Positions 1,031-44,325 of a DNA stretch of 64,000 nt are shown here, in pieces. Position numbers and translations under genes: made by a program. The stretch covers positions 937-64,936 of the forward strand of contig JAFGMP010000009.1 of NCBI GenBank assembly GCA_016927495.1. Direction: 5' to 3'. This DNA comes from Candidatus Latescibacterota bacterium. GTDB taxonomy: Bacteria > Latescibacterota > Latescibacteria > Latescibacterales > Latescibacteraceae. Numbering within the stretch: position 1 is the stretch's first letter; every line of letters begins with the position of its first letter. Under the pieces are notes generated by a model. It worked only from the letters and a program-made list of their open reading frames with translations. It searched no databases and had not been told where the DNA came from.

Positions 1031-1333
1031 CTGCAGAAATTTCAAAACACATCTTTTTACTTCTCCATATTTTTTCTAAAAGCATTCATGTATTTGAATC
1101 ACAAATTAAAAAATTCGTTTTATTTCCTCGAAAGTTCATAATAGTGGAATACTTTCAATTTTTTCGTTTTGTAATTATTGACATATTTTGCTAAACAGCA
1201 TAAACAATCATATCACATGCGGCAATATTTGCCTGAAAGGAATAAAGTATCTGATGCTCGTACATGGCAGAAGAACGAGTATGCCATGTATAATATGTTG
1301 TATGACAATACAATACATGAATTTTACAATGTT

Positions 1334-1347
1334 GGCATGTATGTTGC
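1334..1347 (+). promoter_or_regulatory. Candidate sigma-54 (-24/-12) promoter TGGCATgtatgTTGCg, about 50 nt upstream of the ylxF-like/fliK/flgD/flgE operon
   Basis: GG at 1334-1335 and GC at 1346-1347 have the exact 12-nt spacing of the TGGCAC-N5-TTGCA consensus. Confidence 0.5.
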
Positions 1348-1398
1348 GGATCTGTTTTTACGGTGATTTGTGCGTACATGTCCGGGAGTTGAGTTGAA

Positions 1399-2001
1399 AT
1401 GAACATCATGAAGGTGCTTAAGTTAGTGCTGGTAATTTTGCCGATGGTAATAATAATCGGATTGGTTTTCTATTTTCAGGGAATAAAGAAATTAGGAACG
1501 CCGGCTGAGTTTAAACAAAAGCAACTGGAATTGATTCAAGCCCGCCTTGATTCGATAAAGAAGGTGGAAAGCAGCAAGCTTTTGCCGGAGAATATTGCGG
1601 ATTCGACCCTTTTCAGTGTCGGAAGGCATACCGGTATTTTTGAGGACAATAAACAATTTGAAGATCAGCTTAAAGCAGCACAGACAACACTGGATTCGCT
1701 TGAAAAAGAAAAAAACACACTTGATGCTAAGGAAAAAAGTATAGATGCAAAGATTAATAATCTCAACACTATCTCTCAACTGGCTGAGGATAAAAATATC
1801 AATAATCTTGCAAAAATATATGATGCCATGAAAACACCACAGGCAGTACCCCTTTTCACCTCCATGGATGATTCACTCGCTGTTGCTATCATATCCCTGA
1901 TGCAGCAGCGGAATGCATCGAAACTTTTGGGAGCGATTGCGGAAAAAGATGTGGAAAAAGCCGCCAGATTAAATAAACTTCTTGCGGAGATAGGAAAGTA
2001 A
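1399..2001 (+). CDS. Flagellar operon protein with MgtE-N-like domain (YlxF/FlbB-like)
   Basis: An N-terminal TM helix, a coiled coil and a C-terminal MgtE_N-like segment (DAMKTPQAVPLFTSMDDSLAVAIISLM). It sits between fliJ and fliK as ylxF does in Bacillus. Confidence 0.55.
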   Translation: MNIMKVLKLVLVILPMVIIIGLVFYFQGIKKLGTPAEFKQKQLELIQARLDSIKKVESSKLLPENIADSTLFSVGRHTGIFEDNKQFEDQLKAAQTTLDSLEKEKNTLDAKEKSIDAKINNLNTISQLAEDKNINNLAKIYDAMKTPQAVPLFTSMDDSLAVAIISLMQQRNASKLLGAIAEKDVEKAARLNKLLAEIGK

Positions 2002-2009
2002 TTAAAGGA

Positions 2010-5000
2010 ATGATTATATGTCCTCAAAATATTGATTTCAGTGGATTAGCCGGATTATTATCGTCCCCCAATGTATCATCCGGTTCAACGGATACATCTG
2101 ATTTCGCTGCCCTGATTATGAGTATGCTCGGTGGTGACACAAATCCGGATATAAATATATATCCCGTTTTGACAGAACCTGAAGAAATTTCGGGTATTTC
2201 CACTGAACTTATCTCCGGTATCGACTCAACGCAAACCATTGAAGCCAAATGTGTAATCAGTACAAAAGACGGTAAAAAAATAATTATTCCGGTTATGCTG
2301 TTAAATGCCGAAAATATTGAATTTAGCAATATGATTTACGATGCAATAATTGAATCGGTAAATTCGCAATCCGAAAATACCGATACTCAAATTGCCGCTT
2401 CAGATAGTGGTATTGAAAAAGATACCGAAAATGCACCAATGTTCGCCCGCCCGCTTCAGACATCGTATGTTCCCAATAATGATAATGTGAATTTTGGGAA
2501 TGTGAATATTACCGGAGATAGCCTGACAGAAAAAGCTTCAGCCGTTGTTGATAAAGCAGTGTCCGAACAACCAACGGTATCGACAGAAAAGCTATCGGGT
2601 ACAAATGAGCCTGGCGAAACTGAAACCGTTACAGATACAGAAACACTTTCAGATAATAGCGCTGAAGAAATCGTAAAATCACATACATCGTTCAAAACTG
2701 ATGAGTTTACCGGTTTGCCACAAACCGAAATCGCCGGGCAAAACAAAGAAAATATTACTATCCCTGATAATAAAGAAAGCCAAATTCAGCATATCGAAAC
2801 AGAAGATATACAGGTCCCCGTTGACAGTGTAATTGAGAAGTCCGACAGTATTATCCGAAATTTCAGGTTTTCGGAGATATCGGATGAATCGGTTCTGTCA
2901 AATACGACCGGTGATGAACAATCGACTCAAGTCACTTTGAAAATTATCGGGGCATCGGATGATAATACTTCGACCGATCAAATATTTTATGTCCAAAATA
3001 AAACAGATAATATGAGCACAGAACAAAAAAGAATCAACATAAAGATCAATGGCTTACTTCAGGAAACGACTCAACAGCCGTTATCGATAATCAGGATCAG
3101 CACATCTTCCGGAGAAATACCGATAATATTGAACTTGCCCGATTCTTCCGGCCAAAATATCTCTGCCGCTGATCTGATAAATGATCTGATTACCGCAGGA
3201 GCAGATGTCGAACTGGTTTTGGACACGATCAGGACAAGCGTGAATACCGAAATTTTGCCGGTTGGCAGAAATACCGATGCTGACGGGAATGTACAGCTTT
3301 TCGAGAATAACGGTTTTTCTACAAAAACAAACCGAACCATATTTATTATTCCCGATGCCATAAACCATGATACTGTGCAAACCTCCGGGTTTCAACCAAA
3401 TACCGGAATTATTCGAAATATCTCAGACACACAAGAGATACGCAATACGGATACTGAAAACACTGGTCAACAAATACAGCATAATGAACAGAAAGTTTCG
3501 GATCAGAACGGTTTAATTGTCTCAGCGGGAAAAACAAGTTACTCAGAGGAACAAGTTGATGAGGAAATTTTACATATTGAAAAAGTAACACCTGATGTTA
3601 ATGTTGATAATGTTTCTCAAAATCGGCAATCGGGGGGAGTTGGCGCGGGTTCAAATCCGACCGACGAACAACGCACCTTCACACGCACCCCAGTAAAGCC
3701 CCCCGATGCCGTTATTAAAGCTCCCGAATCCATACCTATATCGGTGGCCGGGGAAACGGAAACGCTAACCGTTGAGAACACAACATCGGAGGTACAATAT
3801 GCTACCGTAGTGAGTGCGAACCAACCCGAAAAGCCTTTGAGTGTAAGTACAATCGCCGATGATAGTACTCGTGAAATATTGGTAAAGGAAAACATATCAA
3901 TTAAAATTTCAAGTACTATCATACCTGAAACATTCCAAAAATCGACCGCGACATTTTCTAAAATCGATAGTATTGAAAAAAACATGGATTCGGACATAAT
4001 ACCTGATAAGTCAACAGGTGAAGAAATTTCGGTTACTGGAAAAAATGATATGCCGGTTACCGATGCTACACCCACTTTTGAAATGTCGGGTAAAGTGACC
4101 GGAACAGTTGTTTCACGGTTCATCCGTACAGGTTCGGAACACAAATTTCTTGAATCGGGCGAGGAGATAAAAGTCAATGAGCAGATTCAAACTTCACCCG
4201 CATCATCAGTTGTTTCTTCCGGTTCAATTGAAAAAAACGCAGATTTCAATACAACGATGGAAGTAAAGAATATAGAAACGGAAACTCTACAGGTTAAACA
4301 TAACGGCGATACTTCGGTTCAGCAGGGAAACCAAAAAATACAATGGAATGAATCTGTTTCATCCGAAAGTTTTGTACGTCCGAATGATAGTGAAGTAAAA
4401 TCCGGATATGAAAAACCTGTAGTGAGTAAGGCAACGGATGGAGAAAATGTACGACCAGTATTTACTGAGAGACAATCGGAAACGGATGCGAAAATATCTG
4501 TCGACAAACCGACTGACAGTATCAAAAAAACAGCTCATCCCTCATTTACTGTGAATACAGACATACCTGAATATACAGAAAAATCCGAACAAACGGAACA
4601 ACATGACACAAACACATTCACTACCGTAAAGGATTCGGTAAAATCCGGAATTTCTGATATAGCGGGAACCGATCCGTCACCGGGAAACACAATTAATATC
4701 ACTGGCAACGATTCCGAGGACAGCGGAATTACATCTCATCAAAAAGATATGAAAACCGAAGGTGATAAGGATGCGACAATACAATCAAAAACATTTAACG
4801 ATGCGCCTTCGGAGTCTGAAGAAATTAATCCGGAACCTGCGAAGAAAAATGATTCTCAGGTTAAGGCAGCGCATATAACGGAACAAAGAAAACATGACAT
4901 GTCTTCATCTCGGCCAGAGAAAATTACGGTTGTATCGGATAATAAATCAGGTACGGTTAATGCGGTAACTCGATCAGTTGAATCTACTTCAGATAGCGAT

Positions 5001-5876
5001 CTTCCTGTAAATTCATTTTCGGTATATAAAACTACCGAACAGATAACTGTAGCACCTGATGTTGATGCCACTTTGAAATATGCAGAGGGGAAATCTCATC
5101 GGATGTATTCCGAGACGGATAGTTCGGGAAAGCCTTTGGTGGTAAATAATATCGAAGGAGATATTGGAAAGGGCCGTCACCGGTACGGGTCCTCTGAAAG
5201 CGAATTGATGAGTGATCAAAACAGGCAGTTCGGCGCTTCAGGATATGCTGGTGAAAATAAAGTCGGCGATATCGAGGATTTTAGTGCGGTACAGAGTAAA
5301 CTGTTTTCGGATTACGGTGAAAGTGATTCCGATAGGTATGCACTGAATGTTGGACAATCAGATTCGGTTTTGAAAGTGGATACACAATTTGGTGGACGTG
5401 GAATTTTCCAAAATAACGATGCCGGGACAATACATGACATCAAAAATGAAGTTTTGAACACAATAGTAAAAAATGCAAAGTTTATGTTCAATAGCGGGCA
5501 GTCAAGTGCTGTAATAAACCTTGAACCACCGAGCCTGGGTAAACTGAAACTGGAAATAATATCCGATAATTTCAGGATAACCGGTAAAATTACGGTGGAA
5601 TCAAATGAAACAAAAGAAATTATTCAAAGCAAATTAATCGAATTGAAAGAGCAGCTTACTCAAAGTGGTCTTAAGGTTGAATCTTTCGATGTGCAACTTG
5701 GGCATAACAGCGGTACTGATTCCTGGGCTAACCGTGAAAAAATTGAAAATCTTACTCAAAATTTAAGACGTAACATTCGGGAAAACGAAAAAATTGAATC
5801 AGAGTATATTTCAGGAATACAGTCGGTAGGAAGAGGAAAGTCCATGGATTCGGGCTATCTCGATATATTGATGTAG
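2010..5876 (+). CDS. fliK: Giant flagellar hook-length control protein FliK (1288 aa) with low-complexity T/S/E/D/N-rich N-terminal region
   Basis: The C-terminal roughly 150 aa (SAVINLEPPSLGKLKLEIISDNFRITGKITVESNETKEIIQSKLIELKEQLTQSGLKVESFDVQL) match the Flg_hook/FliK C-domain. The gene lies between ylxF and flgD. The exact start is uncertain. Confidence 0.8.
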   Translation: MIICPQNIDFSGLAGLLSSPNVSSGSTDTSDFAALIMSMLGGDTNPDINIYPVLTEPEEISGISTELISGIDSTQTIEAKCVISTKDGKKIIIPVMLLNAENIEFSNMIYDAIIESVNSQSENTDTQIAASDSGIEKDTENAPMFARPLQTSYVPNNDNVNFGNVNITGDSLTEKASAVVDKAVSEQPTVSTEKLSGTNEPGETETVTDTETLSDNSAEEIVKSHTSFKTDEFTGLPQTEIAGQNKENITIPDNKESQIQHIETEDIQVPVDSVIEKSDSIIRNFRFSEISDESVLSNTTGDEQSTQVTLKIIGASDDNTSTDQIFYVQNKTDNMSTEQKRINIKINGLLQETTQQPLSIIRISTSSGEIPIILNLPDSSGQNISAADLINDLITAGADVELVLDTIRTSVNTEILPVGRNTDADGNVQLFENNGFSTKTNRTIFIIPDAINHDTVQTSGFQPNTGIIRNISDTQEIRNTDTENTGQQIQHNEQKVSDQNGLIVSAGKTSYSEEQVDEEILHIEKVTPDVNVDNVSQNRQSGGVGAGSNPTDEQRTFTRTPVKPPDAVIKAPESIPISVAGETETLTVENTTSEVQYATVVSANQPEKPLSVSTIADDSTREILVKENISIKISSTIIPETFQKSTATFSKIDSIEKNMDSDIIPDKSTGEEISVTGKNDMPVTDATPTFEMSGKVTGTVVSRFIRTGSEHKFLESGEEIKVNEQIQTSPASSVVSSGSIEKNADFNTTMEVKNIETETLQVKHNGDTSVQQGNQKIQWNESVSSESFVRPNDSEVKSGYEKPVVSKATDGENVRPVFTERQSETDAKISVDKPTDSIKKTAHPSFTVNTDIPEYTEKSEQTEQHDTNTFTTVKDSVKSGISDIAGTDPSPGNTINITGNDSEDSGITSHQKDMKTEGDKDATIQSKTFNDAPSESEEINPEPAKKNDSQVKAAHITEQRKHDMSSSRPEKITVVSDNKSGTVNAVTRSVESTSDSDLPVNSFSVYKTTEQITVAPDVDATLKYAEGKSHRMYSETDSSGKPLVVNNIEGDIGKGRHRYGSSESELMSDQNRQFGASGYAGENKVGDIEDFSAVQSKLFSDYGESDSDRYALNVGQSDSVLKVDTQFGGRGIFQNNDAGTIHDIKNEVLNTIVKNAKFMFNSGQSSAVINLEPPSLGKLKLEIISDNFRITGKITVESNETKEIIQSKLIELKEQLTQSGLKVESFDVQLGHNSGTDSWANREKIENLTQNLRRNIRENEKIESEYISGIQSVGRGKSMDSGYLDILM

Positions 5877-7105: not shown

Positions 7106-7189
7106 TAAAATTATGGGCCGGACCTCATTGAGGGAGCCCGACACCGTCGATCGATTGACACGGTGCAAATTCAAAAGGAGTTAAGTAAA

Positions 7190-9289
7190 ATGGCAGGCAG
7201 AGCTATGCAGACCGCTGTTAGCGGTATACGTAACCAACAGACATATATGGATGTTATAGCAAATAACATCTCAAACTCGGGCACCATGGGGTACAAAAAG
7301 GGCCGAATAACTTTTGAGGAATCTTTCTATCAACTGCTTCAGGGCGCTTCAAGACCTCCCGGTGACCAGGGCGGTGTTAATCCGCTTCAGATCGGAAACG
7401 GAACATCGGTCGGTTCAATCGATACCTTGTTTACACAGGGCCCAATCGAATCAACAGGGAACCAGAGTGATATTGCGATCCGCGGCGAAGGATTTTTTGT
7501 GGTTGCCGAAGGTAACCAATATTACTATACACGAGCCGGATCATTCCAGTGGGATTCCAATGGGACTATGGTTATACCTTTTAACGGAATGAAAGTACAG
7601 GGAAGAATTGCAAACGAGAATGGAGTTGTCAGTGATGGTAGTCCTATACAGGATATCGTTGTTCCGTTCGGTACGGTTGACCCTGCCAAGACTACGACCG
7701 AGGTTAATTTTGTCGGTAATCTGGATTCCGCCGCAGAACCTTTAGGCAATGTTTTACGTACCGCCCGTATGTATTCACGGGAAGTTGCGGGAAGCACTAC
7801 CGATATCAACGGTTTATATGCAAATGGAGATGCCGACCTTCAGATAACTGGAATGTCTTCACTTTCGACTACTATAACGGTTACAATTACCGACGCTACT
7901 ACCGGTGATCACTCGAAAACTTTCACCTATGTTGCCGAGGATACCGGCCCATCAAGTCTGGATTTTAACACGCTTGATAATCTCGTGGCGGAAATAAACA
8001 GTGAATTCAGTACATACGTAAATGCCGCTGTTAACAACGATGGCGCACTCAGATTTAATAATCTTGGCGCGGCTACGAATACAATTACTTTATCAAGCGT
8101 GAATTCGGTTCTGGATAAAGCCCTGGGTTCAGCTAACGGCATTATCGGTGACAAGACGACAGACCAGTTTTCACATGTTGCGGTAGCTTCGGATAATCTG
8201 ACTACGCTTCGTAATTATCAGGGCGTTAATCTTGGCCTTACATTAGCCAATACAATTACTGTTGACGGACGAGTAGGCGGAACAGCGATTAATACTTCCT
8301 CGATTAATGTTAATGATGGTGAAGGCAATAGTCTTACTTATGGTGAATATGTTAAGCTTATCAAGGATGCATTCGGAATTACCAACACGACGGCAGTTGA
8401 AATCGATTCGACGACCGGTGCGATGATCATCAATGCAGACGGAGGATTGGAAAACGAAATCACCGCAGTAAATATTTCTACCAACTCAAAAACATCGGGA
8501 GGTACAGCACAGGTATTTGACAGTGTTTTCGATGCCACTATCGGCAACTGGAACCAGACGCAGGAAGCTGAGGATGTTACTCATTCTGCCGCAGTACAGG
8601 TATTCGATTCACTGGGTAACACTCATACGCTTACGCTTGAATTTAAGAAGGATGTGACACTTCCCAATCGATGGGAATGGAGTATCACGGTTCCTGAGCC
8701 GGCTGAATTATCGGGTGGATCTTCAGGTTCGGTATCATTTGATTCAAACGGTTTTATTGAATCATTTTCTTATTCTCAGGGTGCGAGTTCTTTAACATTC
8801 GATCCTAAAAATGGCGCTGAAGTCCCTGTGGATATAGTACTTGATTTCGGTACAATCGGAAGCGCAGATGGTATTACCCAATTTGCAAGCACCTCGACGG
8901 CTATTGCCCGTGATCAGAACGGATATTCTGCCGGTACGCTGGACAACGTAGTAGTGGGCCAGAACGGAACTATCACCGGTGTGTTCACGAATGGTAACTC
9001 CAGGACTCTCGCAAGGCTTGTTCTTGCAACGTTTAATAATCCTGCGGGTCTTCTCAGAGTAGGAGATAATACCTTTGATGTTTCATCAAATTCAGGGCTT
9101 CCGATATATGGATTTGCCGATTCATCAATCAATGCCACGCTTACACCCGGAGCTGTCGAAATGTCCAATGTTGATATCGCTGAGGAATTTACCAGTATGA
9201 TAATGGCTCAGCGTTCGTTTCAGGCAAATGCACGAACAGTGACAACATCGGATGAAATTCTGCAGGAGACGGTCAATTTGAAACGTTAA
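7190..9289 (+). CDS. flgE: Flagellar hook protein FlgE (about 700 aa, large central insertion)
   Basis: N-terminal rod/hook motif (AMQTAVSGIRNQQTYMDVIANNISN) and C-terminal Flg_bbr_C (NVDIAEEFTSMIMAQRSFQANARTVTTSDEILQETVNL). An AAGGAG RBS sits at 7175-7180 and the ATG at 7190. The ORF-track start at 7163 is probably too far upstream. Confidence 0.9.
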   Translation: MAGRAMQTAVSGIRNQQTYMDVIANNISNSGTMGYKKGRITFEESFYQLLQGASRPPGDQGGVNPLQIGNGTSVGSIDTLFTQGPIESTGNQSDIAIRGEGFFVVAEGNQYYYTRAGSFQWDSNGTMVIPFNGMKVQGRIANENGVVSDGSPIQDIVVPFGTVDPAKTTTEVNFVGNLDSAAEPLGNVLRTARMYSREVAGSTTDINGLYANGDADLQITGMSSLSTTITVTITDATTGDHSKTFTYVAEDTGPSSLDFNTLDNLVAEINSEFSTYVNAAVNNDGALRFNNLGAATNTITLSSVNSVLDKALGSANGIIGDKTTDQFSHVAVASDNLTTLRNYQGVNLGLTLANTITVDGRVGGTAINTSSINVNDGEGNSLTYGEYVKLIKDAFGITNTTAVEIDSTTGAMIINADGGLENEITAVNISTNSKTSGGTAQVFDSVFDATIGNWNQTQEAEDVTHSAAVQVFDSLGNTHTLTLEFKKDVTLPNRWEWSITVPEPAELSGGSSGSVSFDSNGFIESFSYSQGASSLTFDPKNGAEVPVDIVLDFGTIGSADGITQFASTSTAIARDQNGYSAGTLDNVVVGQNGTITGVFTNGNSRTLARLVLATFNNPAGLLRVGDNTFDVSSNSGLPIYGFADSSINATLTPGAVEMSNVDIAEEFTSMIMAQRSFQANARTVTTSDEILQETVNLKR

Positions 9290-9695: not shown

Positions 9696-9723
9696 TTGAT
9701 ATAAATATTTCAGATGGTATAAT
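9696..9723 (+). promoter_or_regulatory. Possible sigma-70-type promoter (TTGATA-N16-TGGTATAAT) upstream of flbD-motAB
   Basis: -35-like TTGATA at 9696-9701, and an extended -10 TGgTATAAT ending at 9723. It sits in the 490-bp AT-rich flgE-flbD spacer. Whether the host sigma-A uses this consensus is uncertain given its FCB-type RpoD. Confidence 0.3.
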
Positions 9724-9776
9724 TTTTGCAAATATTTTATCGTCGTAATTTGCTTTTAAATCGAGAAAGAAAAAAA

Positions 9777-19711: not shown

Positions 19712-20820
19712 TGATAATTAAAAAATACACTGCACCAACTCTTGCCCAGGCGCTATCGAATGTTCGTGAGGAACTGGGTACGGATGCGATAATTCTTAAT
19801 ACACGAAATGTTAAAAAGGGTGGTGTTTTGCATCTGCTCGGCAGTTCCGTTTATGAAGTAACTGCTGCGATCGATGATAAACCAACAGGTGAAAGTACTA
19901 TGGATTTACAAACGGGTGCGAGAGATTTGAGTTACCGTGTTCAGGTAGATTATCTAATCGATGATATTAAAGAACTCAAAATGTCGATCAGGGATCTTGC
20001 CGATTCTGCCCTTACAGGTGAAATGGATGGATTGCCGGTACAGCTTGCAGCTTTATTAAAACGGCTTCAGGATACCGGAATGGATGAGAAAATCGCCAAA
20101 AGACTGACACGGCAACTCCTTAACGAACTGGATGGCCGTGAACTAAGCGATCCAAAAATAATCGGCAAACGGGCCACAGAAATTCTTCTTGCAGGCATGG
20201 GAGATGTAAAACCGATTCCTTCCGGCGGTACAAAACCGCGGATTATTGCTTTCGTTGGTCCTACAGGTTCCGGGAAAACAACAACCATAGCCAAGCTTGC
20301 CACCGAAATATCTCTCAATATGGATAAAAAAGTGGCAGTGCTCAATATCGATACAAAACGGGTTGATGCGGTAGGACAACTGAAGGCATATTGCAGAATA
20401 ATTAACATTCCGCTTTATGTAGCATACAGTCCGGATGAAATTCCCGGAATTATGCCGGGAATAATGGAAAACGATATTACGCTTGTGGATACTCCGGGCG
20501 CCGGACCGATGGACAGAACGCAAATGATTGAAATGGTGGAATTCCTCCATAAGCTTGTGCCGCAGGAGGTTCATCTTACCCTGAGCGTTACGACGTCTTT
20601 TATGGAAATGAAACGTATTTTTAATAATTTCGGCGTTATGAAACCAAACCGTATTTTATTTACGAAACTCGATGAGACAGATAGTTACGGCACAATGATT
20701 TCATTTGCGCTGGTGGCAAAAGAGAAATTGTCCTATGTGACATTCGGTCAGAATGTGCCGGGGGATTTTGATATTGCAAATCCGGGAAAAATCATAAGAG
20801 ATACCCTGGCGCTTAAATAA
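19711..20820 (+). CDS. flhF: Flagellar biosynthesis GTPase FlhF (SRP-like)
   Basis: SRP54-type GTPase motifs (IIAFVGPTGSGKTTTIAKLA, DTPG). Confidence 0.85.
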   Translation: MIIKKYTAPTLAQALSNVREELGTDAIILNTRNVKKGGVLHLLGSSVYEVTAAIDDKPTGESTMDLQTGARDLSYRVQVDYLIDDIKELKMSIRDLADSALTGEMDGLPVQLAALLKRLQDTGMDEKIAKRLTRQLLNELDGRELSDPKIIGKRATEILLAGMGDVKPIPSGGTKPRIIAFVGPTGSGKTTTIAKLATEISLNMDKKVAVLNIDTKRVDAVGQLKAYCRIINIPLYVAYSPDEIPGIMPGIMENDITLVDTPGAGPMDRTQMIEMVEFLHKLVPQEVHLTLSVTTSFMEMKRIFNNFGVMKPNRILFTKLDETDSYGTMISFALVAKEKLSYVTFGQNVPGDFDIANPGKIIRDTLALK

Positions 20821-20861: not shown

Positions 20862-21668
20862 ATGGCATTGCAAAATAATTTAGATATTAAACACATCAAA
20901 GCGAAAGTATATGCGATTACCAGCGGGAAAGGTGGAGTCGGTAAAACATCACTTGCGGTGAATCTCTCGATTATTCTATCGAAAGCGGGAATGCGGGTGC
21001 TTTTGATAGATGCCGATATGGGGCTGGCTAATGTCGATCTAATGACAGGTGTAATGGCTCCTCATACAATCGAAGAGGTTATCAACGGGAAAGCGAGTAT
21101 TTTTGATGCGCTGGTCGAAGGCCCCGAAGGGTTAACCATATTGCCGGCGAGTTCCGGAGTGGGGCATATCCTCGAAGTCGGCATGGAGAGTGAAGCACAG
21201 TTTCTGAAGGAACTTCTTAAGCTTGAACATGCTTTCGACATAATCTTTATCGATACCGGCGCCGGTATATCCGCAAATGTAATCGATTTTGTCTTCATGG
21301 CCAAAGAGGTTATCGTTATTATGACTCCCGAACCTACCGCTTTTGCTGATGCATATGCCATGGTGAAACTTGTGGCAACGCAAAAACCGGATATGATAAT
21401 CAGTATTGTCGTAAATATTGTCAAAACAGAGGGTGAGGGGACACACATATTTACCAAATTCAATGAAATTGTAGAACGATTTTTAGGGAGAAGCGTTATT
21501 TTCAGGGGATCGATATTTTCCGATGCTGCAGTTTCGCAGGCGGTAATGCGCCAGATTCCGTTGGCGGTGTATGCAGGATCGTCTCCGGCAGTACAATCGA
21601 TGAAAAATATTGCAAAAAATGTGCTGGGTTTAAAAACTGCTAAAAAAAGAACCATCTTCAACCGATAA
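20862..21668 (+). CDS. flhG: MinD-like ATPase FlhG (FleN/YlxH)
   Basis: Deviant Walker A (ITSGKGGVGKTS) and ParA/MinD fold, directly after flhF. Confidence 0.85.
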   Translation: MALQNNLDIKHIKAKVYAITSGKGGVGKTSLAVNLSIILSKAGMRVLLIDADMGLANVDLMTGVMAPHTIEEVINGKASIFDALVEGPEGLTILPASSGVGHILEVGMESEAQFLKELLKLEHAFDIIFIDTGAGISANVIDFVFMAKEVIVIMTPEPTAFADAYAMVKLVATQKPDMIISIVVNIVKTEGEGTHIFTKFNEIVERFLGRSVIFRGSIFSDAAVSQAVMRQIPLAVYAGSSPAVQSMKNIAKNVLGLKTAKKRTIFNR

Positions 21669-23248: not shown

Positions 23249-24868
23249 ATGTGTTCTGTGCGAATAAATCCTCAAAAAATTGCCGAAAACCTTATGATAA
23301 AACAAGTTGAAACAAAAACTGTTACAACTGGAGATTCGGCAAATTCTGTCGAAATAAAAAATATTGGTGAGACTTTGTCCGGCCGATTATTGTCGCTGTT
23401 TGACACAAAAGGCGGTAATGTACCTCGCTCGACAATTCTCGACATTGCATCGAAACTTGCGGCTTTGGATATGAAACCCTCTGATGTTGATGGTGATATC
23501 GCGCTGAAAGCGCTTTTGCTACAACATAATAATATTCCCCTGAGTCGGGAGTTACTTCTGGACAGCTTTGAGAGCGATCCGGCGGTTTTCACAAAATTGA
23601 ACACTCTTGTCGATAGTGTACTCACTGCGTTGAGTGATTCGAGAGTAACCGGTGAGATAAGGACAACGCTTGGTATATTCATTAAAAATCTTGACTCATT
23701 ATTCAGGCCTGAGTCGATGCAGGAAGCTGTCCGAAATACTTTGACCGATCATGTATCGGAATGGTCCCGCTCAATTGAGTTGAAAATTCTTTCACTTCTG
23801 TTAAATAATCCTGAAGCAATTCGAGCCGCACCGATGGAACATGTATCCTCTGCCGAAGTGATGCTTATGCTCTCGGATGCTGCGCAGAAAAATCCTCAGA
23901 TAGACGTATTGATGGAAAAGCTTGGTGACATAACCGGTAAATTATTATCACGGTTATATGAACTCAATCCGGGAACTGATGAATTTAATGTCGGTATCAG
24001 ACAGGCAGTTGCCGTATTATCCAAACATCTGACGGATCTTATCCCGGATATTAACGCAATTTTACAAAACTCGGGTAATCCGATCCTTTCTGATGATGTT
24101 TTAGCCGTTTTTTTCAGTGAACACATACAGTTATTGGAGGAAAAACTGCTCAGCGCACTTGAATCCGTATCTTCGAAAAGCGTGATGAGTGGATCAGTAA
24201 TACGGAGTGAGGTAAATATACCGTTGCACAAAATGTTGAGAAACAGCGGTATGTCGTTTGAATGGCAATTACTGGCATGGTATCGTTCGGGTAAAAATCC
24301 GGAAAGACTTCGCGAGCTTATGCAGCGTGATATTAAGGGCATTCTCGATAAGTTTATGACCGATCTGAACTTATATAGAAAAAAAAGCTCCGGCAAAAGT
24401 ATATTAAAAAACCTCGAACGTGAAGCAAAATCTGTGCTTGACTGTATTACTCAGCGTCAGATTTCCAATATTCTGCAGGATCGTGGAACCGGTGGGAAAG
24501 TATATTTCGAACTGCCGCTCGGCAATCTCCGCGATAAAGATAATGCACGGGTAACTGCAGAAGGTGGTCAAAAATCAGAAGAAAATGGGTTAAATCCGGA
24601 AAATTTCAATCTTTCGTTCGATGTCGAGACTACCGGACTGGGACGATTGTATGTTACTATGAATGTACAGAAAAAAAACATTTCACTCGAGTTTTTAGTG
24701 AGGGATGATAATGTTATCACTCAGGCGCATACAATTGAACATGAGCTTGTCGACTCATTGTTTTCACGGGGATTTTCCGTTAATTCGTTAAGTTTTGATG
24801 TAATCAGAGATAACATCGCGTTCAATAAGAATAAATCGAATAGACGCAGTATGGATATAAAGGGATGA
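23249..24868 (+). CDS. Second FliK-like protein (Flg_hook C-terminal domain)
   Basis: The C-terminus (NFNLSFDVETTGLGRLYVTMNVQKKNISLEFLVRDDNVITQAHTIEHELVDSLFSRGFSV) resembles the FliK/Flg_hook domain. It is paired with an FlhB-CTD-like gene, as in Firmicutes FliK-like/YlqH pairs. The start is uncertain, possibly MIKQVETK at 23294. Confidence 0.55.
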   Translation: MCSVRINPQKIAENLMIKQVETKTVTTGDSANSVEIKNIGETLSGRLLSLFDTKGGNVPRSTILDIASKLAALDMKPSDVDGDIALKALLLQHNNIPLSRELLLDSFESDPAVFTKLNTLVDSVLTALSDSRVTGEIRTTLGIFIKNLDSLFRPESMQEAVRNTLTDHVSEWSRSIELKILSLLLNNPEAIRAAPMEHVSSAEVMLMLSDAAQKNPQIDVLMEKLGDITGKLLSRLYELNPGTDEFNVGIRQAVAVLSKHLTDLIPDINAILQNSGNPILSDDVLAVFFSEHIQLLEEKLLSALESVSSKSVMSGSVIRSEVNIPLHKMLRNSGMSFEWQLLAWYRSGKNPERLRELMQRDIKGILDKFMTDLNLYRKKSSGKSILKNLEREAKSVLDCITQRQISNILQDRGTGGKVYFELPLGNLRDKDNARVTAEGGQKSEENGLNPENFNLSFDVETTGLGRLYVTMNVQKKNISLEFLVRDDNVITQAHTIEHELVDSLFSRGFSVNSLSFDVIRDNIAFNKNKSNRRSMDIKG

Positions 24869-25167
24869 ATAAGAGGCAATCTAAAAAAAATATCGAGGGA
24901 CGAAAAGCCGCTGCAGCTCTTCGTTACAAAATGGATGAAGATGTTGCTCCGAAACTTGTAGCTAAAGGAACAGGTAGAATTGCAGAAAAGATAATCGAAA
25001 CTGCCAGGGAAGCAGGAGTACCTATTTATGAAGATCCGGATCTTATTGCTCTTCTTTTGACTTTGAACATAGGAGAATTTATTCCACCGGAACTGTACAT
25101 TTCTATTGCGGAAGTACTGGCTTTTATATACCGTTTAAACAAGAAATCGTTTGAATCTGTTTATTAG
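24865..25167 (+). CDS. FlhB C-terminal-domain-like protein (YlqH-like)
   Basis: 100-aa protein (KLVAKGTGRIAEKIIETAREAGVPIYEDPDLIALLLTLNIGEFIPPELYISIAEVLAFIY) resembling the soluble C-terminal domain of FlhB/YscU but lacking NPTH. It overlaps the upstream gene by 4 nt. Confidence 0.7.
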   Translation: MNKRQSKKNIEGRKAAAALRYKMDEDVAPKLVAKGTGRIAEKIIETAREAGVPIYEDPDLIALLLTLNIGEFIPPELYISIAEVLAFIYRLNKKSFESVY

Positions 25168-25187: not shown

Positions 25188-26024
25188 ATGGCTGATTCTT
25201 CGGAAATAATCAAGAACATGCGAGTTCTCTTTGACATAAGCGCCCTTATTCGTACCGACACTAAACTCGAACTGAAGTTTGAACAGGTATTGGAGAAAGT
25301 GAAGGATGCCGCTTGCTGTCAATCGGTAAGTCTTTTTATAGCTGATGACAGCGGAAAACTTGAGGAAATCGCGACAATCGGAACACCGGTAGAACTCATT
25401 AAAACAATTGATTTTGACATGGGAAGCGGATTTAGCGCCTGGGTTGCAAAACAGCGGAAATCGGTGTTAATACCCAATCTCAGAGAAAGCAGGCATAAAC
25501 ATTTCAGGTCATTCGTCTCAACCCCTCTGATTTCCAATGACCGTCTGATAGGTGTTATGAATCTAGGACATGAAGAACCGGATGCTTTTACCGAAGAAAA
25601 TCTGCAACTCTTCGAAATAATTGCTGAACAGCTTGCACTGATGATTGAGCGAACTAATTATGAACAGGAACTGATAAAGAAAAATGAAGCGCTTGTTGAG
25701 GCTCAGGATGAAATTAAAAAACAGAATAAACAAATTATTGAAATGGAAAAATTTCATGTTATGGCACAAATGGCGGCCTCTGTCAACCATGAAATCAACA
25801 ACCCTTTAACATCGGTGATAGGAAATGTTGAACTAATACTTATGTCACGGCAGGATTTGGACGATATTGTCAGGAAAAAGCTAACGGTTGTTCTTGAAGA
25901 AGCGCACCGTATCGGGAAAATTACACAGAAACTGCGTGATATGAAACGGATTGTTGTAGAAGATTACCTGAAGAAAACGGAAGAAAAGATGATCGACCTC
26001 GACTCTTCAAGTTCATTAGATTAA
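25188..26024 (+). CDS. GAF domain plus HisKA (DHp) protein lacking an ATPase (HATPase_c) domain
   Basis: N-terminal GAF-like region (SVSLFIADDSGKLEEIATIG...LIGVMNLGHEE), a coiled coil, then an H-box (MAQMAASVNHEINNPLTSVIGNVELIL). The ORF ends about 60 aa later with no G1/G2 boxes. A terminator follows, so no downstream ATPase ORF exists. Confidence 0.7.
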   Translation: MADSSEIIKNMRVLFDISALIRTDTKLELKFEQVLEKVKDAACCQSVSLFIADDSGKLEEIATIGTPVELIKTIDFDMGSGFSAWVAKQRKSVLIPNLRESRHKHFRSFVSTPLISNDRLIGVMNLGHEEPDAFTEENLQLFEIIAEQLALMIERTNYEQELIKKNEALVEAQDEIKKQNKQIIEMEKFHVMAQMAASVNHEINNPLTSVIGNVELILMSRQDLDDIVRKKLTVVLEEAHRIGKITQKLRDMKRIVVEDYLKKTEEKMIDLDSSSSLD

Positions 26025-26145
26025 ACGGAAAATCTTTCCTGAAAAGGGAATAAACTTCTTTCAGCTTGTGTGAAAAATGATGCCTAATATAAAAATAGAA
26101 TGAGAAATCTTGATGTAAAGCAAATAATATCAATATATTAAGTAG

Positions 26146-26177
26146 ACCGGCGATTAAAAATATCGCCGGTTTTTTTA
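26146..26177 (+). terminator. Rho-independent terminator (ACCGGCGAT-taaaaat-ATCGCCGGT then TTTTTTT)
   Basis: Perfect 9-bp GC-rich stem, 7-nt loop and a 7-T run, about 120 nt after the GAF-DHp gene. Confidence 0.8.
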
Positions 26178-26178
26178 T

Positions 26179-26192
26179 GGCATGACTGTTGC
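26179..26192 (+). promoter_or_regulatory. Candidate sigma-54 (-24/-12) promoter TGGCATgactgTTGCA upstream of flgF-flgG-flgA-flgH-flgI-flgJ
   Basis: GG at 26179-26180 and GC at 26191-26192 with 12-nt spacing. Matches TGGCAC-N5-TTGCA at 10 of 11 conserved positions. It lies about 140 nt upstream of flgF, immediately after the terminator. Confidence 0.55.
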
Positions 26193-26330
26193 AATTGAGT
26201 ATGCTGGAATTAAAATTTGATACATTGAATTCATGTTAACAACTCATACCGGGTCATGACAGACTAATCATATTCATGTATTAATAGGGCTTTGAAAATG
26301 AAACAAAAAAATAAACTGTGGGGAATATAA

Positions 26331-33913: not shown

Positions 33914-34372
33914 ATGGGGATTCTTTCAGACAACCCGTCCGTTACACTGAAAACATCTCGCGGTATAATCGAAATTGATACAAAGGATGTCATTCATTTT
34001 CCTGAGGGCATTTTGGGTTTTGAGGGATATAATGATTTCGCTATTCTCGATATCACCGATTGCAAACCGTTTAAGAGTATGCTTTCTGTCAAGGAAGGTG
34101 GACCGGATTTTGTTGTCGTCGAACCTCTGCTCATATTTGATGATTATACTCCCCTGGATTCCGCAGGGCCGATACATGATTTAGGATTGGGTGATCCCCT
34201 GAACCTCGTAATATTGTCTATTGTGACACTTTCTGAAAAAACGGAAGACATCACTATCAATCTCAGTGGCCCTATTTTCCTCAATCAGGCGACAGGGTTG
34301 GCCAAACAAGTCGCTCTTCCCGACGAAAAATACCACACAAAAGTCCCCGTTTTTATCGACGACGAAAATTGA
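33914..34372 (+). CDS. fliW: Flagellar assembly factor FliW
   Basis: IEIDTKDVIHFPEGILGFEGYNDFAIL matches the FliW family. 152 aa. Confidence 0.85.
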   Translation: MGILSDNPSVTLKTSRGIIEIDTKDVIHFPEGILGFEGYNDFAILDITDCKPFKSMLSVKEGGPDFVVVEPLLIFDDYTPLDSAGPIHDLGLGDPLNLVILSIVTLSEKTEDITINLSGPIFLNQATGLAKQVALPDEKYHTKVPVFIDDEN

Positions 34373-39129: not shown

Positions 39130-39327
39130 TGAAAAATCCTTATTAAATTTTTAATTTGCTCTTGTAAACCTTAAAGTTATATTATAAACAATATGGAACC
39201 AAACGGCAACAATTCTTTCATTCCTTTACGGGCTAAATATCAATTTCTTATACCTGAATCATACAATATCAAAAAATCGGCATATAAAATACACTTAGTT
39301 GCTTTTTCAAAAGTATGGAGGATTATC

Positions 39328-39591
39328 ATGCTTGTTCTGTCACGGAAAGCAGGGCAGAAAATTCATATAGGTTCGGATATACTGATCACAATTATCGATG
39401 TATCGGGGAAATTCGTAAAAATCGGAATAAACGCACCGGAATCGATTAATGTTTTGCGGAGTGAGATAAAAGAGATGATTGAAAGGGAAAACAAACTTGC
39501 GGCAAAACAAAGCAGCTATATTTATAATTTGAGTAAATTCGGTAATATTTTTTTAAAAAACAAAGACATGCAAAAAAATAAAAAAACATAA
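39328..39591 (+). CDS. csrA: Carbon storage regulator CsrA (with about 30-aa C-terminal extension)
   Basis: MLVLSRKAGQKIHIGSDILITIIDVSGKFVKIGINAPESINVLRSEI is near-identical in pattern to CsrA. GGAGG RBS at 39317. The ORF-track start at 39193 is too far upstream. Confidence 0.9.
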   Translation: MLVLSRKAGQKIHIGSDILITIIDVSGKFVKIGINAPESINVLRSEIKEMIERENKLAAKQSSYIYNLSKFGNIFLKNKDMQKNKKT

Positions 39592-39739: not shown

Positions 39740-39766
39740 TAAAGTTTCTGCGTTCTTAACCGATAA
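39740..39766 (+). promoter_or_regulatory. Sigma-28 promoter TAAAGTTT-N11-aCCGATAA driving fliC, with a leader of about 200 nt
   Basis: TAAAGTTT at 39740-39747 and ACCGATAA at 39759-39766. Spacing is exactly the consensus. Confidence 0.75.
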
Positions 39767-39971: not shown

Positions 39972-40793
39972 ATGAGTTTAAGAATTAATCATAATATTTC
40001 AGCGATGAATACTCATCGCCAATTGCTTCAGACAGACAGGAAGCTGTCTAACTCGCTCGAAAGGTTATCGAGTGGTTTAAGAATTAACCGTGCGGCAGAT
40101 GACAGTGCCGGTCTTGCAATCTCACAAAGGCTGAGATCGCAGGTTGAAGGTCTTCAGATGGCATCGCAGAATGCCGAACAGGCAAAAAATGTTGTACAGA
40201 CTGCCGAAGGTTATCTTAACGAAATTCACAATATGCTCGGCCGTATGCGTGAGCTGGCAGTTCAGTCTTCATCCGATACCGTCGACAATACAAACCGTGC
40301 ATCTCTGCATGCAGAGTTTTCTTCTCTTCGTGAAGAAATCACGCGTATTGCCAACGCTGCGGAGTACAATAACCAAAAACTGCTCGATGGCTCATTTAAC
40401 GGCACATTTCAGATCGGCGCCAACAACACAACGAATGATGTGATATCATTCACTATCGCAGGTGTGGATGATTCAACTCTTTCAATCGATGCTTCCGACA
40501 TCTCAACCCGTGCCGGCGCAAATACCGCTCTTGACGAATTAACGGCGGCAATTGATGCTGTTTCCACTACCCGTTCCGATTTGGGTACAATTCAGAACAG
40601 GTTGGCATTTACCGTGGCAAGTGTTGACAATGCTTCGGAAAACCTTGCAAGTTCAGAGTCGACAATTAGAGACCTTGATATCTCTAACGAGGTCACTGAG
40701 TTCACAAAATCTCAGATTCTGACTCAGGCCGGTATGTCGATGTTGGCACAGGCAAATGCAGTGCCTCAGAATGTGCTTGCACTCTTCAGGTAA
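39972..40793 (+). CDS. fliC: Flagellin (minimal, 273 aa, D0/D1 only)
   Basis: N-terminus MSLRINHNISAMNTHRQLLQTDRKLSNSLERLSSGLRINRAADDSAGLAISQRL and C-terminus TQAGMSMLAQANAVPQNVLALFR are flagellin N/C domains. Confidence 0.95.
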   Translation: MSLRINHNISAMNTHRQLLQTDRKLSNSLERLSSGLRINRAADDSAGLAISQRLRSQVEGLQMASQNAEQAKNVVQTAEGYLNEIHNMLGRMRELAVQSSSDTVDNTNRASLHAEFSSLREEITRIANAAEYNNQKLLDGSFNGTFQIGANNTTNDVISFTIAGVDDSTLSIDASDISTRAGANTALDELTAAIDAVSTTRSDLGTIQNRLAFTVASVDNASENLASSESTIRDLDISNEVTEFTKSQILTQAGMSMLAQANAVPQNVLALFR

Positions 40794-40837
40794 TTGGTTC
40801 CTTGGTTTAATATTTTTATGTATTTGAGGTGATGACA

Positions 40838-41248
40838 ATGGTAATAGAAAGTCGTGTTCAGGACATAACACAAGAAGTCGCTGCTAAAGAACTTCAGAGT
40901 GGAACTGTTGAACGACAGGGATCAGTCACCTCCAAATCGAATAGTGGTACTACCAGGAAATCAAAAGAATCTGAGACAAAAGCATCAGTCGGGACGAAAA
41001 ATGGATCATTAAATTCAGCACTCGAACCGATTGATGTACATCGTGCAGTCGAGAAACTTAACCAGATTGCAGAATCACAGATGAAAGATGTAAGCTTTTC
41101 TGTTGACGAGGATGCAGATGCCACTGTAATTAAAGTTTTCAAAAGGAAAACTGGGGAGCTGATCAAGCAATTCCCGGCAGAAATGATTTTAGCTATGAAG
41201 GCACGAATTCGTAAAAATACGGGCTGGTTTTATGACAGTAAAATTTAG
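40838..41248 (+). CDS. flaG: Flagellar protein FlaG
   Basis: The C-terminal region (KDVSFSVDEDADATVIKVFKRKTGELIKQFPAEMILAMKARI) matches the FlaG family. It lies between fliC and fliD. Confidence 0.8.
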   Translation: MVIESRVQDITQEVAAKELQSGTVERQGSVTSKSNSGTTRKSKESETKASVGTKNGSLNSALEPIDVHRAVEKLNQIAESQMKDVSFSVDEDADATVIKVFKRKTGELIKQFPAEMILAMKARIRKNTGWFYDSKI

Positions 41249-41307
41249 TATATTTTTTCTGGTAGATTTAATTAACAGAGAAGCCTTTTAATACGAGGTT
41301 AAGCAAC

Positions 41308-44300
41308 ATGGCGAGTACAGGATCAATAAGTTTTGGCGGTTTGGCGAGTGGTTTGGACACAACCCAACTCATTGAAAATCTGATGACGGTTGAATCAAAG
41401 CCCTTAACCAGGCTTGAGAATAAGAAAACGGAACTCGACAGCCAGTATGATACCTATACTACCATGAAGTCGAACCTTAATGAACTAAAAACGCTTGTAT
41501 CCGCGCTTAAAAGTTCGGATACCTTTGGAGTTTTCAGTGCCTCTTCTTCCGATGAAGAGGCACTGACACTCAGTGCTTCAACCTCGGCAAATGAGGGTAC
41601 TTATTCAATTAAAATCCTATCATTGGCTCAGGCTGAAACATTGTCAAGTAACTCATATGCATATACTGAAAACAATCTTAATCTGACAGGCGAAATTCTT
41701 ATAAACGGCAACAGTTTCAGTGTTAGCAGTACCGACTCGTTGATTGATATTCGAAATGGTATTAATGCTTTGGATGCCGGTGTTACGGCGAACATTCTGA
41801 AAGTTTCAAATGGCGACAACCGGCTTATTATATCCTCAGATACTGCGGGTGAAGAAGGTATTTTTATAGCGAATGTCGGCAGTACCGACATTCTTGGTAA
41901 TTTAGGCTTTACAGACGGTACGAAAAGTATACGCGAGTTTTCGAACGGGAGTGTTCTGTCTGCTTCATTTGAGTCTTCTACGGCAACCGTAGGCAGTCTT
42001 TTCGATATCTCGTCCGGTGTTTCCGGTAATGTTGCCATCAGGGATGAATCACTGAGTATCGATCTATCCAAAGACACGTTAAATTCCATCCGTGACAAAA
42101 TCAACAATCTTGGCCTTACCGGTGTAACCGCATCGATAGAATCCCAAACGGAAAATAACGCCACCACCTATCGCCTTGCAATTACAGGAACGGAAGATTT
42201 TACCGACGATAATAATATTCTTGAGACACTCGGTATTTTTGAGGGGGGAAGAAGTGGTATAAGCAAGACGGTTGAGACCGGAGTCTTGTATTCTAATAAT
42301 AGCGAAAATAGTGTAAAATATGCAGACAGCAATACACATTTAAGTCAATTGGGAGCAGAAGTTCAGGGGGGAGAAACCGAGACAATTACCATATCCGGTA
42401 CTAATCTTGATGGTTCGGCCGTTTCCAAAACGATCGAAATTTCATCAAATACAAATATCGATGATATTCTTACCGGTATTGAAGAAGCGTATTCAGGTAA
42501 TGTGACGGCGTCGATTGAAAATGGGAAGATACAGGTGAAGAGCAATGAAACCGGGTCATCTTCGCTTGAATTCAGAATTTTTGCACATAATGAAAATGGA
42601 GGCACACTCGATTTCGGTACAATCAGTACGACCGCAAATGGACGTGAACGATTATTAGCTGAAGGTGGGAATGCGCGAATACTGGTGAATAACATTGAGG
42701 TATCGAGAGACTCGAATGAAGTTAACGATGTGCTTACAGGCCTCAATTTAACCCTGAAAAAGGCTGATCAGGATACTACCTTAAGTATTACGGTGGAACG
42801 CAATACCGACGAAATCAAAGATAAAATTCAGGAATTTATTACTGTTTACAATGAGTTTATCGATTTCGTCGATGAGAATTCACAATATAACGAGGAAGAA
42901 AATGTAGCCGGACCTCTTCTCGGTGATCTGACAACAAGAAGCATTCTTTCCCGGATCAGGGAATCGTTACGGACAAGTGTTTTTGGCGATGATTTGAGTT
43001 ATAATCAACTTGTCCAGATAGGTATAGAGTCGACAGCAGATGGAAAACTGGAACTCGACACCGCAAAACTTATGGATGCAATGGATGAGAATGTGGATTC
43101 AGTAGTTTCTTTATTCTCAGCCACACGTAAGTCGAGTGATAATGACATCTCATTTGTCTATCATTCCGAAAAGACAAAATCGGGCACATACGCTGTAACC
43201 ATTACGCAGGCAGCAGAGCAGGCTGAAGTTATTTCGGATGTTTCACAGGAAGATATTCAATCGGGTACTCTGAAAATAACAGATAACTTTGGATATACTA
43301 TTGAGTTTGGTTATGATTCCGGCATGACGTTTGATGATATTGCAAATGCACTTGCTGTCGAGGCTCAGACTTCTTATAGCGAGATTTTAAGGTCGGATAC
43401 GGGACTATCGCAATCTGCCAATCAGGATCCGGTCACCCAGAATACGGCAATAAGCGAAATAGCCGGTGTTCAAATTAATGAAAACGATACGATTACCATA
43501 AACGGAACAAGCCGAAGCGGTAAAGAATATCAGAGAATCATATCACTTGGCGGAAGTGAAAATGTCACGATGCAGGATATTCTGGATGCGGTAGAAGCTA
43601 TAGCAGATAATGAAGTCAATGCCACAATCGACACCGGAGGCAAAATACTGATCGAAGATACACAGACCGGAACAAACAAATTCTCATTTTCTATCGAAAC
43701 TACTGTGGAAGGTCTGGATTTCGGTACAATTTCTTCGATACAAAAAGGCCGGAACCGTGTAAATATTGAGGCTTCTGTGACCGAAAATAACCGCTTGAGA
43801 ATAAATCATTCATCTTATGGCTCCAACAACACCCTGACAATTTCTGGAGGCAGCGGACTGGGTCTCGCAGATGGTGAATATGCCGGAGTTGATGTTGCCG
43901 GGACGATTAACGGTGTCACCGGTACCGGCAGCGGCCAGTCACTGAGCGCTTCAGCCAGCGATACGAATGCAAGAGGCATTGTAATAAGAACTAAAATTAC
44001 GCCTGAAGAACTCGCATTCGAGGGGCCGTCCCAGGGAACGATAACGTTAATATCGGGGATTGCCGATTTACTGTACAGCGATCTCAATGCCATAACTAAT
44101 CCGGTTGACGGATTCATTCAGGCGAAAATTGACAGTGTTGAGCTTTCGCGGGAAAGTGTCGCAACTCAAATAGATAATACAACAGCTCGTCTCGACCAAA
44201 GACGTCAGATGTATGTCAAAAAATTCACTGAACTCGAACGTGCCATGGCAAGCCTTGAATCGATGCAGCAAAGTTTATCGGCATCTCTTAGCGCACTGCC

Positions 44301-44322: not shown

Positions 44323-44325
44323 AAC

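Follow-up and report, generated by a model that had tools for sequence, protein, structure and literature searches.

We have analysed the promoter regions of a flagellar gene cluster in a 64,000-nt stretch of DNA from Candidatus Latescibacterota bacterium (the whole stretch is called the window below). Two operons of the cluster, the hook operon and the operon that begins with flgF, are each preceded by an exact -24/-12 element of the sigma-54 type, and both share a two-part dyad further upstream. We hold with good confidence that the control of these genes would be explained by three components, i.e., sigma-54 promoters, an upstream enhancer and a cluster-encoded activator, with a nearby palindrome standing outside the conserved machinery. 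The system belongs to an already known kind, the sigma-54 flagellar hierarchy with an NtrC-type activator, and the findings do not overturn current models. The two promoters and the first gene of the hook operon are as follows.

1333..1348, + strand: sigma-54 -24/-12 promoter of the hook operon, TGGCATGTATGTTGCG; exact consensus match
26178..26193, + strand: sigma-54 -24/-12 promoter of the flgF-flgG-flgA-flgH-flgI...flgK-flgL-fliW operon, TGGCATGACTGTTGCA; exact match, conserved
1399..2001, + strand: FlbB/YlxF/MotE-like gene (200 aa), first gene of the hook operon; weak MgtE_N and weak FlbB matches

In the hook-operon element (TGGCATGTATGTTGC, 1333-1347), the GG doublet occupies 1334-1335 and the GC doublet 1346-1347, which is the canonical -24/-12 spacing. 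Both 1333-1348 and 26178-26193 carry the two doublets one helical turn apart within TGGCAC-N5-TTGCW. The more specific pattern TGGCAT-N5-TTGC is found exactly twice in the window (1333-1347 and 26178-26192), both times on the + strand. The sequence-only reading had reported a sigma-54-type element with exact spacing before the hook operon and a second one before flgF; both are present, though they start at 1333 and 26178 rather than at 1334 and 26179. For exact TGGCAY-N5-TTGC on both strands of the 64 kb, we observe 2 matches against 0.28 expected, and 3 of 100 shuffles reach 2. If one mismatch is allowed, the count rises to 11 against 6.4 expected, and the additional matches are mostly intragenic. 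Both exact elements, on the other hand, lie on the gene strand, in the intergenic gaps directly upstream of flagellar operons. It is this strand and intergenic placement, together with the conservation in relatives described below, that puts the window elements well beyond chance. Judging from the position of the elements, transcription would start near 1359 (+/- 2) for the hook operon and near 26204 for the flgF operon; a CG(A/G) is conserved ~12 nt after TTGCA.

The product of the gene at 1399-2001 (200 aa) has the same sequence as MBN1290271.1 (hypothetical protein JXB48_00405, Candidatus Latescibacteria bacterium), which comes from a 68.5-kb contig of a metagenome-assembled genome (MAG). 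We have found 35 homologues of it, all in flagellar context. The alignment of 32 homologues led to 16 loci from genome and metagenome collections, and 4 more were obtained by exact protein look-up. Each of these 20 loci has the hook-operon TGGCAY-N5-TTGC, at a distance of 66-130 nt upstream of the flbB-like orthologue, while the protein identity falls from 83% down to 39%. In total, 25 related loci (designated by L numbers) were scanned, i.e., ~233 kb beyond the window, or ~297 kb with it. All exact matches in the 25 loci are on the flagellar-gene strand at one of three orthologous positions, i.e., upstream of the flbB-like gene, flgB or flgF, and none is seen elsewhere in the ~297 kb of window and loci. 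The matches at the latter two positions are as follows.

L001 1893, L002 538, L018 116, L019 350, L021 11873 and L025 10465, flagellar-gene strand: sigma-54 elements upstream of flgB; exact match
L022 9835, L023 923 and L024 9935, flagellar-gene strand: sigma-54 elements upstream of flgF, counterparts of window 26178; exact match

This positional specificity points to a real sigma-54 regulon pattern and not to chance matches. The earlier proposal that the -24/-12 elements are sigma-54 promoters is thereby strengthened, as the orthologous positions are kept in every relative fetched and a third position, upstream of flgB, has been added. Loci L025 and L024 both come from contig JAJFUH010000049.1, which brings together the kinase and activator genes described below, the flgB promoter and the flgF promoter. 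Overall, 1333-1348 is very probably a functional sigma-54 promoter of the operon of the flbB-like gene, fliK, flgD and flgE, and we infer that sigma-54 is actually used at the window promoters.

It could be argued that TGGCAT-N5-TTGC is not read by sigma-54 at all, and is either the site of a transcription factor or a portion of a promoter for the housekeeping sigma, e.g., ATGACA-N17-TACAAT. Such a sigma-70-like match, with 10 of 12 positions, ends at 1330, just before the element; canonical TTGACA-N17-TATATT promoters do occur in the cluster in relatives; and no gene for sigma-54 itself (rpoN) was found in the ~297 kb of window and loci. However, L019 and the distant relatives do not keep the sigma-70-like boxes, while the -24/-12 element is invariant. 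Both sigma-54 blocks appear at exact spacing at three separate promoter positions, and in relatives the same cluster encodes a sigma-54-dependent activator with a GAFTGA loop. Activators with this loop are known to act only with sigma-54. We regard this explanation as very improbable.

A further sigma-54-like sequence, TGGTATAATTTTTGCA, is seen at 9715-9730, 47 nt upstream of the flbD ATG (9777), with a T replacing the C after GG. The two closest relatives (L017 14260 and L018 18045) have an element of the same type, but L007 and L002 do not. This may be a fourth sigma-54 promoter, weaker than the others and restricted to the lineage. As this TGGTAY-N5-TTGCA is conserved in the two closest relatives only, we have not counted it as a fourth promoter.

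Upstream of the two window promoters lie the parts of the conserved dyad, which are listed below.

1221..1233, + strand: candidate enhancer half A, a 13-bp dyad GGCAATATTTGCC (perfect palindrome GGCAA-TAT-TTGCC), 112 nt upstream of the -24 box
1239..1251, + strand: candidate enhancer half B, GGAATAAAGTATC (family consensus GGAATAAANTTCT), 5 nt after half A
26027..26059, + strand: two-part candidate enhancer at flgF, GGAAAATCTTTCC-tgaaaag-GGAATAAACTTCT, 3 nt past the stop codon of a GAF-HisKA gene

The conserved form is GGNAAWWWWTNCC plus GGAATAAANTTCT, and in the window it is located 112-152 nt upstream of the -24 box (1221-1251 and 26027-26059). In every relative whose sequence reaches far enough upstream, the 13-mer GGNAAHHHHTNCC stands 112-126 nt upstream of the hook-operon -24 box. 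At the hook-operon and flgF promoters, half B usually follows half A after 5-8 nt. The flgF dyad also recurs in L022, L023 and L024, where it precedes the -24 box by 150-152 nt, and half A stands upstream of the flgB promoters too, at 136-145 nt. The motif is therefore common to non-orthologous promoters. Elsewhere, a loose form of the 13-mer pattern appears about once per 10 kb. When a matrix trained on the relatives is run over the window, the flgF site ranks top with 37 bits against 14.5 for the next, a result that is partly circular since orthologous flgF sites are in the training set. We have also considered the helical phasing of enhancer and promoter, but the distances (112-117, 123-126, 136-145 and 150-152 nt) are not clean enough for a phasing argument.

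The dyad at 1221-1251 is symmetric, lies within 80-150 bp upstream of the promoter, is conserved, and is common to the hook, flgB and flgF promoters across lineages, as would befit an upstream activating sequence. Since symmetry, distance, conservation and sharing among promoters are what is expected of the enhancer of a sigma-54 activator, we consider it reasonably likely that 1221-1251 is the activator's enhancer. This is the upstream element that merits experimental attention, rather than the palindrome that lies ~40 nt downstream of its half A.

1261..1290, no strand: palindrome TACATGGCA-N12-TGCCATGTA, 9-bp arms, genome-specific, probably incidental

The sequence-only reading had singled out this palindrome as CATGGCA-N12-TGCCATG at 1263-1288 and suggested that it might be a site for the activator (a bacterial enhancer-binding protein) or for integration host factor (IHF). 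The palindrome does exist, and it is even longer, with 9-bp arms over 1261-1290; it does not, however, exceed chance. With arms of 9 bp or more and a spacer no longer than 20 nt, ~13 distinct perfect inverted repeats are present in the window. The raw overlapping count, 26, is above the Markov mean of 7.1, and such repeats are still common in the window. Under the Markov model, the P of finding at least one in the 368-nt spacer before the flbB-like gene is 0.08. The specific pattern ATGGCA-N6-20-TGCCAT, by comparison, is expected only 0.03 times per window.

This low expectation, the perfect 9-bp dyad symmetry and the location, centred ~58 nt upstream of the -24 box between promoter and upstream region, speak for an activator or IHF-like site. 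IHF sites are often located between a sigma-54 promoter and its upstream region. The conservation tells otherwise. In an alignment of the window with L018, L017, L019 and L005 (alignment A2), the spacer is least conserved in the palindrome columns, whereas the blocks on both sides of them are conserved. L017 and L018, whose flbB-like proteins are 82-83% identical to that of the window, have unrelated sequence at this position, and ATGGCA-N6-20-TGCCAT is found in none of the 21 related loci searched. No second copy was found in the window, even with 3 mismatches or variable spacing, and the flgF promoter lacks it. The palindrome is thus neither conserved at orthologous promoters nor recurrent at the other promoters of the regulon, and a different, conserved and promoter-shared element, which its arms do not resemble, already occupies the usual enhancer distance. 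A role as activator or IHF-like site is in our view very unlikely, and this part of the earlier proposal is not supported.

Somewhat less improbable, though still unlikely, is a lineage-specific functional add-on, i.e., an RNA hairpin in fliJ read-through transcripts (attenuation or processing), a site for an extra regulator, or a decoy for the sigma-54 holoenzyme. As RNA, the palindrome folds at -13.8 kcal/mol (z = -2.35), and the corresponding stretch of L017 and L018 does not fold. The interval that corresponds to it at the flgF promoter holds a true terminator.

26146..26177, + strand: intrinsic terminator of the upstream operon, 9-bp GC-rich stem and seven-T run; minimum free energy -17.4 kcal/mol, z = -5.07

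The T run of this terminator abuts the flgF -24 box. The terminator thus lies between the flgF enhancer and the promoter, a layout that L022-L024 share and that places the flgF enhancer upstream of the terminator of the preceding operon. The palindrome itself, however, would make a poor intrinsic terminator: no T run follows its stem, its loop has 12 nt, the terminator scan called none there, and 6 of 200 shuffles fold equally well. As for a decoy, the right arm TGCCATGTAT (1282-1291) is one mismatch from the -24 box TGGCATGTAT (1333-1342), 51 nt downstream, and the minus strand reads TGGCAT-N5-TTCT. The palindrome may, from this resemblance, be a decayed partial duplicate of the -24 box or promoter; such a decoy would lack the invariant GC at -12. 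Its single occurrence without conservation speaks against any of the three roles. Most likely, the palindrome is a chance or lineage-specific feature, and we are fairly confident that it is not part of the conserved machinery.

Between the palindrome and the promoter lies a partly conserved block.

1293..1318, no strand: middle block ..GTTG..CAATACAATAC.., partly conserved; the CAAT and ATA columns are invariant in alignment A2

In the window it forms an imperfect inverted repeat (ATATGTTGTAT/ATACAATACAT) and is possibly a site for an architectural protein. Compared by eye, the block matches the E. coli IHF consensus WATCAANNNNTTR poorly, and we make no IHF claim. The sigma-70-like ATGACA-N17-TACAAT (1302-1330) overlaps this block. 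No RNA family of Rfam is found in 1000-1450.

We now turn to the proteins that would act on the proposed sigma-54 promoters and enhancer. The earlier statement that the window has no rpoN and no gene for a bacterial enhancer-binding protein holds: Pfam scans of the open reading frames (ORFs) and GAFTGA and RpoN-box motif scans give none in the window. An NtrC-family activator, which the sequence-only reading had suggested looking for elsewhere, was found outside the window, in relatives, whose clusters have it at their head. L001 carries it immediately before flgB (231-1601), as a gene that matches Response_reg, Sigma54_activat (E = 5.5e-74) and HTH_8. Its orthologues are 70-89% identical across Latescibacteria, carry GAFTGA, Walker A and a near-identical C-terminal helix-turn-helix (HTH), and several are named sigma-54-dependent regulators by NCBI. 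The near identity of the HTH fits a conserved DNA target. Against the NCBIfam models, the activator is nearest to AtoC/NtrC, the FlbD and FlgR models score lower, and no equivalog cut-off is passed. The order of a small ORF, a PAS-HisKA-HATPase kinase gene, the activator gene and flgB is observed in L021 (a 1.08-Mb contig), in a 138.5-kb contig of the Joint Genome Institute (JGI), and in L025, where an additional 478-aa ORF lies between kinase and activator. A Latescibacteria orthologue, MBN1293077.1 (P0060), is 71% identical, with GAFTGA, Walker A and a nearly identical C-terminal HTH. Its accession is 2,806 above that of the window protein MBN1290271.1, and it may, subject to confirmation, come from the same MAG. 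From the gene linkage and the co-conservation, we infer that this activator is the protein that binds the dyad, and the genome would also be expected to encode RpoN.

Several observations weigh against this picture. The activator and kinase genes are seen in relatives only, none tied with certainty to this genome, and scans for the RpoN box and its HTH motif gave no rpoN match in the window and the 25 loci (~297 kb). The flgB promoters have half A but no clear half B. The matrix test of the enhancer is partly circular, as said, and the hook-operon site scores only 7.8 bits with a matrix built without GGCAA-type sites. In addition, the sigma-70-like ATGACA-N17-TACAAT could add a second start.

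Sigma-54 closed complexes are unable to open DNA unaided. In the mechanism that we propose, an NtrC-family regulator with REC, AAA+ (GAFTGA loop) and Fis-type HTH domains would remodel the closed complex. It would bind the two-part enhancer, receive a phosphate from the adjacent cytoplasmic-type PAS kinase, and contact the polymerase by DNA looping. It would act at three sigma-54 promoters, namely those of the hook operon (start near 1359), of the flgF operon and, in relatives, of flgB. As fliA is one of the genes of the sigma-54-driven operon, and the flagellin gene and fliS have boxes of the sigma-28 type in front of them, a two-tier cascade of RpoN and then FliA would follow. The sigma-28-like boxes, for which TAAA-N15-CCGATAA gives 3 matches against 0.75 expected, are listed below.

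39740..39766, + strand: sigma-28-like promoter TAAA-N15-CCGATAA before the flagellin gene (39972); motif match
21641-21668, strand not stated: sigma-28-like box before fliA; motif match
44326-44352, strand not stated: sigma-28-like box before fliS; motif match

Together with the conserved sigma-54 promoters, the boxes before fliA, the flagellin gene and fliS make the RpoN-then-FliA hierarchy, as suggested earlier, the best reading.

This hierarchy had been called unexpected, which seems too strong. In Gram-negative polar flagellates surveyed previously, FlhF and FlhG widely co-occur with flagellum-linked two-component systems that activate sigma-54-dependent rod and hook genes (PMC7064773). 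Both flhF and flhG are in the window, and the regulatory context matches this co-occurrence. As in systems of the FlrBC/FleSR/FlgSR type, we find a linked kinase and NtrC-type regulator (in relatives only), FlhF/FlhG, sigma-54 elements at rod and hook genes and sigma-28-type elements at late genes. An earlier class, independent of the two-component system, for the MS-ring, rotor and export genes is not found here: fliF and fliG are downstream of the flgB sigma-54 promoter, and flhA, flhB and fliP are downstream of the hook-operon promoter. Internal promoters may exist within the sigma-54-driven operons, because TTGACA-N17-TATATT precedes fliI in relatives. The literature searched gave no report linking Latescibacteria or other flagellated phyla in the FCB (Fibrobacteres-Chlorobi-Bacteroidetes) superphylum to sigma-54 flagellar control.

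Among known systems, the likeness is closest to FlrBC/FleSR and to FlbD/ftr. FlrBC of Vibrio cholerae and FleSR of Pseudomonas aeruginosa share with the Latescibacteria system a PAS kinase and an NtrC-type regulator with HTH beside flagellar genes, sigma-54 elements before rod and hook operons, FlhF/FlhG and sigma-28-type late promoters (PMC7064773). They differ in that no master activator of the FlrA/FleQ type is seen near the Latescibacteria cluster, and in that fliF, fliG, flhA, flhB and fliP stand behind sigma-54 promoters instead of forming an earlier class. The Latescibacteria proteins also score best against the AtoC/NtrC models, below every NCBIfam equivalog cut-off, and their candidate enhancer is upstream. 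FlrC sites have been reported downstream of the transcription start.

With FlbD/ftr of Caulobacter crescentus, the common features are a single NtrC-family activator with a C-terminal HTH and a repeated dyad ~100 bp from the sigma-54 promoters of several flagellar operons (PMC3930126). The Latescibacteria activator matches the FlbD model at 398-412 bits, yet this is below the cut-off of 750 bits, and its gene has a kinase gene adjacent to it. No cognate kinase is known for FlbD, whose control is exerted by FliX, under the master regulator CtrA.

FlgSR of Campylobacter jejuni and Helicobacter pylori likewise combines a two-component system and sigma-54 for rod and hook genes with sigma-28 for late genes. 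Unlike the kinase in Latescibacteria, however, the FlgS-type kinase has no PAS domain (PMC7064773). The Latescibacteria activator differs further in having HTH_8 and a conserved candidate enhancer, and it reaches 320-336 bits with the FlgR model against a cut-off of 750. FlgR is not known to require a DNA-binding domain, or has none.

The fla/che operon of Bacillus subtilis and the flgB superoperon of spirochaetes have the same gene order, flgB-flgC-fliE-fliF-fliG-fliH-fliI-fliJ-(ylxF/flbB)-fliK-flgD-flgE-flbD-motAB-fliLMN...flhBAFG-fliA. Those operons are driven by sigma-A/sigma-70 and sigma-D promoters, whereas the Latescibacteria array is punctuated by sigma-54 promoters with candidate enhancers. 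This suggests that RpoN control is compatible with flagellar genes ordered as in Bacillus or spirochaetes, and it carries the link among FlhF/FlhG, flagellar two-component systems and sigma-54 past the Gram-negative reference genomes of surveys to date (PMC7064773). It also provides a testable map of the flagellar regulon for an uncultured phylum, made up of three promoters, an enhancer motif common to them, and candidates for the kinase and the activator.

A bolder proposition, which we offer as speculative and rather doubtful, is that in Latescibacteria, and perhaps in other flagellated FCB bacteria, all structural flagellar operons, those of the MS-ring, rotor and export-gate genes among them, are driven from sigma-54 promoters by a single kinase/activator pair that recognises an as yet undescribed GGAA-N5-TTCC-type enhancer, with the palindrome, as two inverted near-copies of the -24 box, serving as a recent lineage-specific modulator. 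If true, this would be a one-tier cascade of RpoN and then FliA without a separate master regulator, compared with the three- or four-tier schemes of Proteobacteria.

As for the housekeeping sigma factor, its description as Bacteroidetes-type is weaker than had been stated, because relatives carry an E. coli-type TTGACA-N17-TATATT upstream of fliI. It is conserved where a reverse-strand gene separates fliH from fliI, and ends 6 nt before the ATG.

L017 ~4035-4077, L018 ~7833-7875, L019 ~7500-7542 and L025 ~20140-20180, strand not stated: TTGACA-N17-TATATT before fliI; motif match

These positions suggest that the fliI transcript would be nearly leaderless in these relatives, and that the housekeeping sigma probably reads classical -35/-10 boxes rather than Bacteroidetes-type ones. 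In several relatives, the gene between fliH and fliI has FlgD_ig and Por_Secre_tail matches, the latter a sorting signal of the type IX secretion system type.

L017 2644-3552, L019 6385-7299 and L025 16650-18821, reverse strand: FlgD_ig/Por_Secre_tail gene; domain matches

According to the Pfam scans of the window ORFs, the flagellar cluster spans 1 to 34372 on the + strand. It starts with the 3' part of fliI and with fliJ, followed by the 368-nt gap and the FlbB/YlxF/MotE-like gene. The hook operon then continues with fliK, flgD, flgE, flbD, motAB, fliLMN, fliP, flhB, flhA, flhF, flhG and a FliA-type sigma factor gene, while fliO, fliQ and fliR have been assigned by position only. After fliA come a second FliK-like gene, an ORF for the FlhB C-terminal domain alone, the GAF-HisKA gene and a 306-nt gap. 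The flgF operon has the order flgF, flgG, flgA, flgH, flgI, flgJ, flgN, flgK, flgL and fliW. The flagellin gene, flaG, fliD and fliS are located at 39972-44886 (Pfam identifies the flagellin, FliS and also the FliA-type sigma factor).

Three of the axial and cap proteins of the flagellum are unusually large, namely FliK (1288 aa, 2010-5876), FlgE (708 aa, 7163-9289) and FliD (1004 aa, 41308-44322). The second FliK-like protein has 539 aa and a weak Flg_hook match. The start of the following 100-aa ORF, which matches the FlhB C-terminal domain, overlaps the stop of this gene, and the pair (23249-25167) is kept in L022 and L024. The GAF-HisKA protein (278 aa, 25188-26024) has no HATPase_c and is encoded at the end of the fliA-containing operon, directly before the flgF enhancer, in L022 and L024 as well; it may serve the flagellar two-component system as a partner in phosphotransfer or regulation. 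In addition, fliW (33914-34372) and csrA (39193-39591, with an N-terminal extension of ~45 aa) both lie near the flagellin gene, which suggests control of flagellin translation by a FliW-CsrA partner switch, as in Bacillus and Campylobacter.

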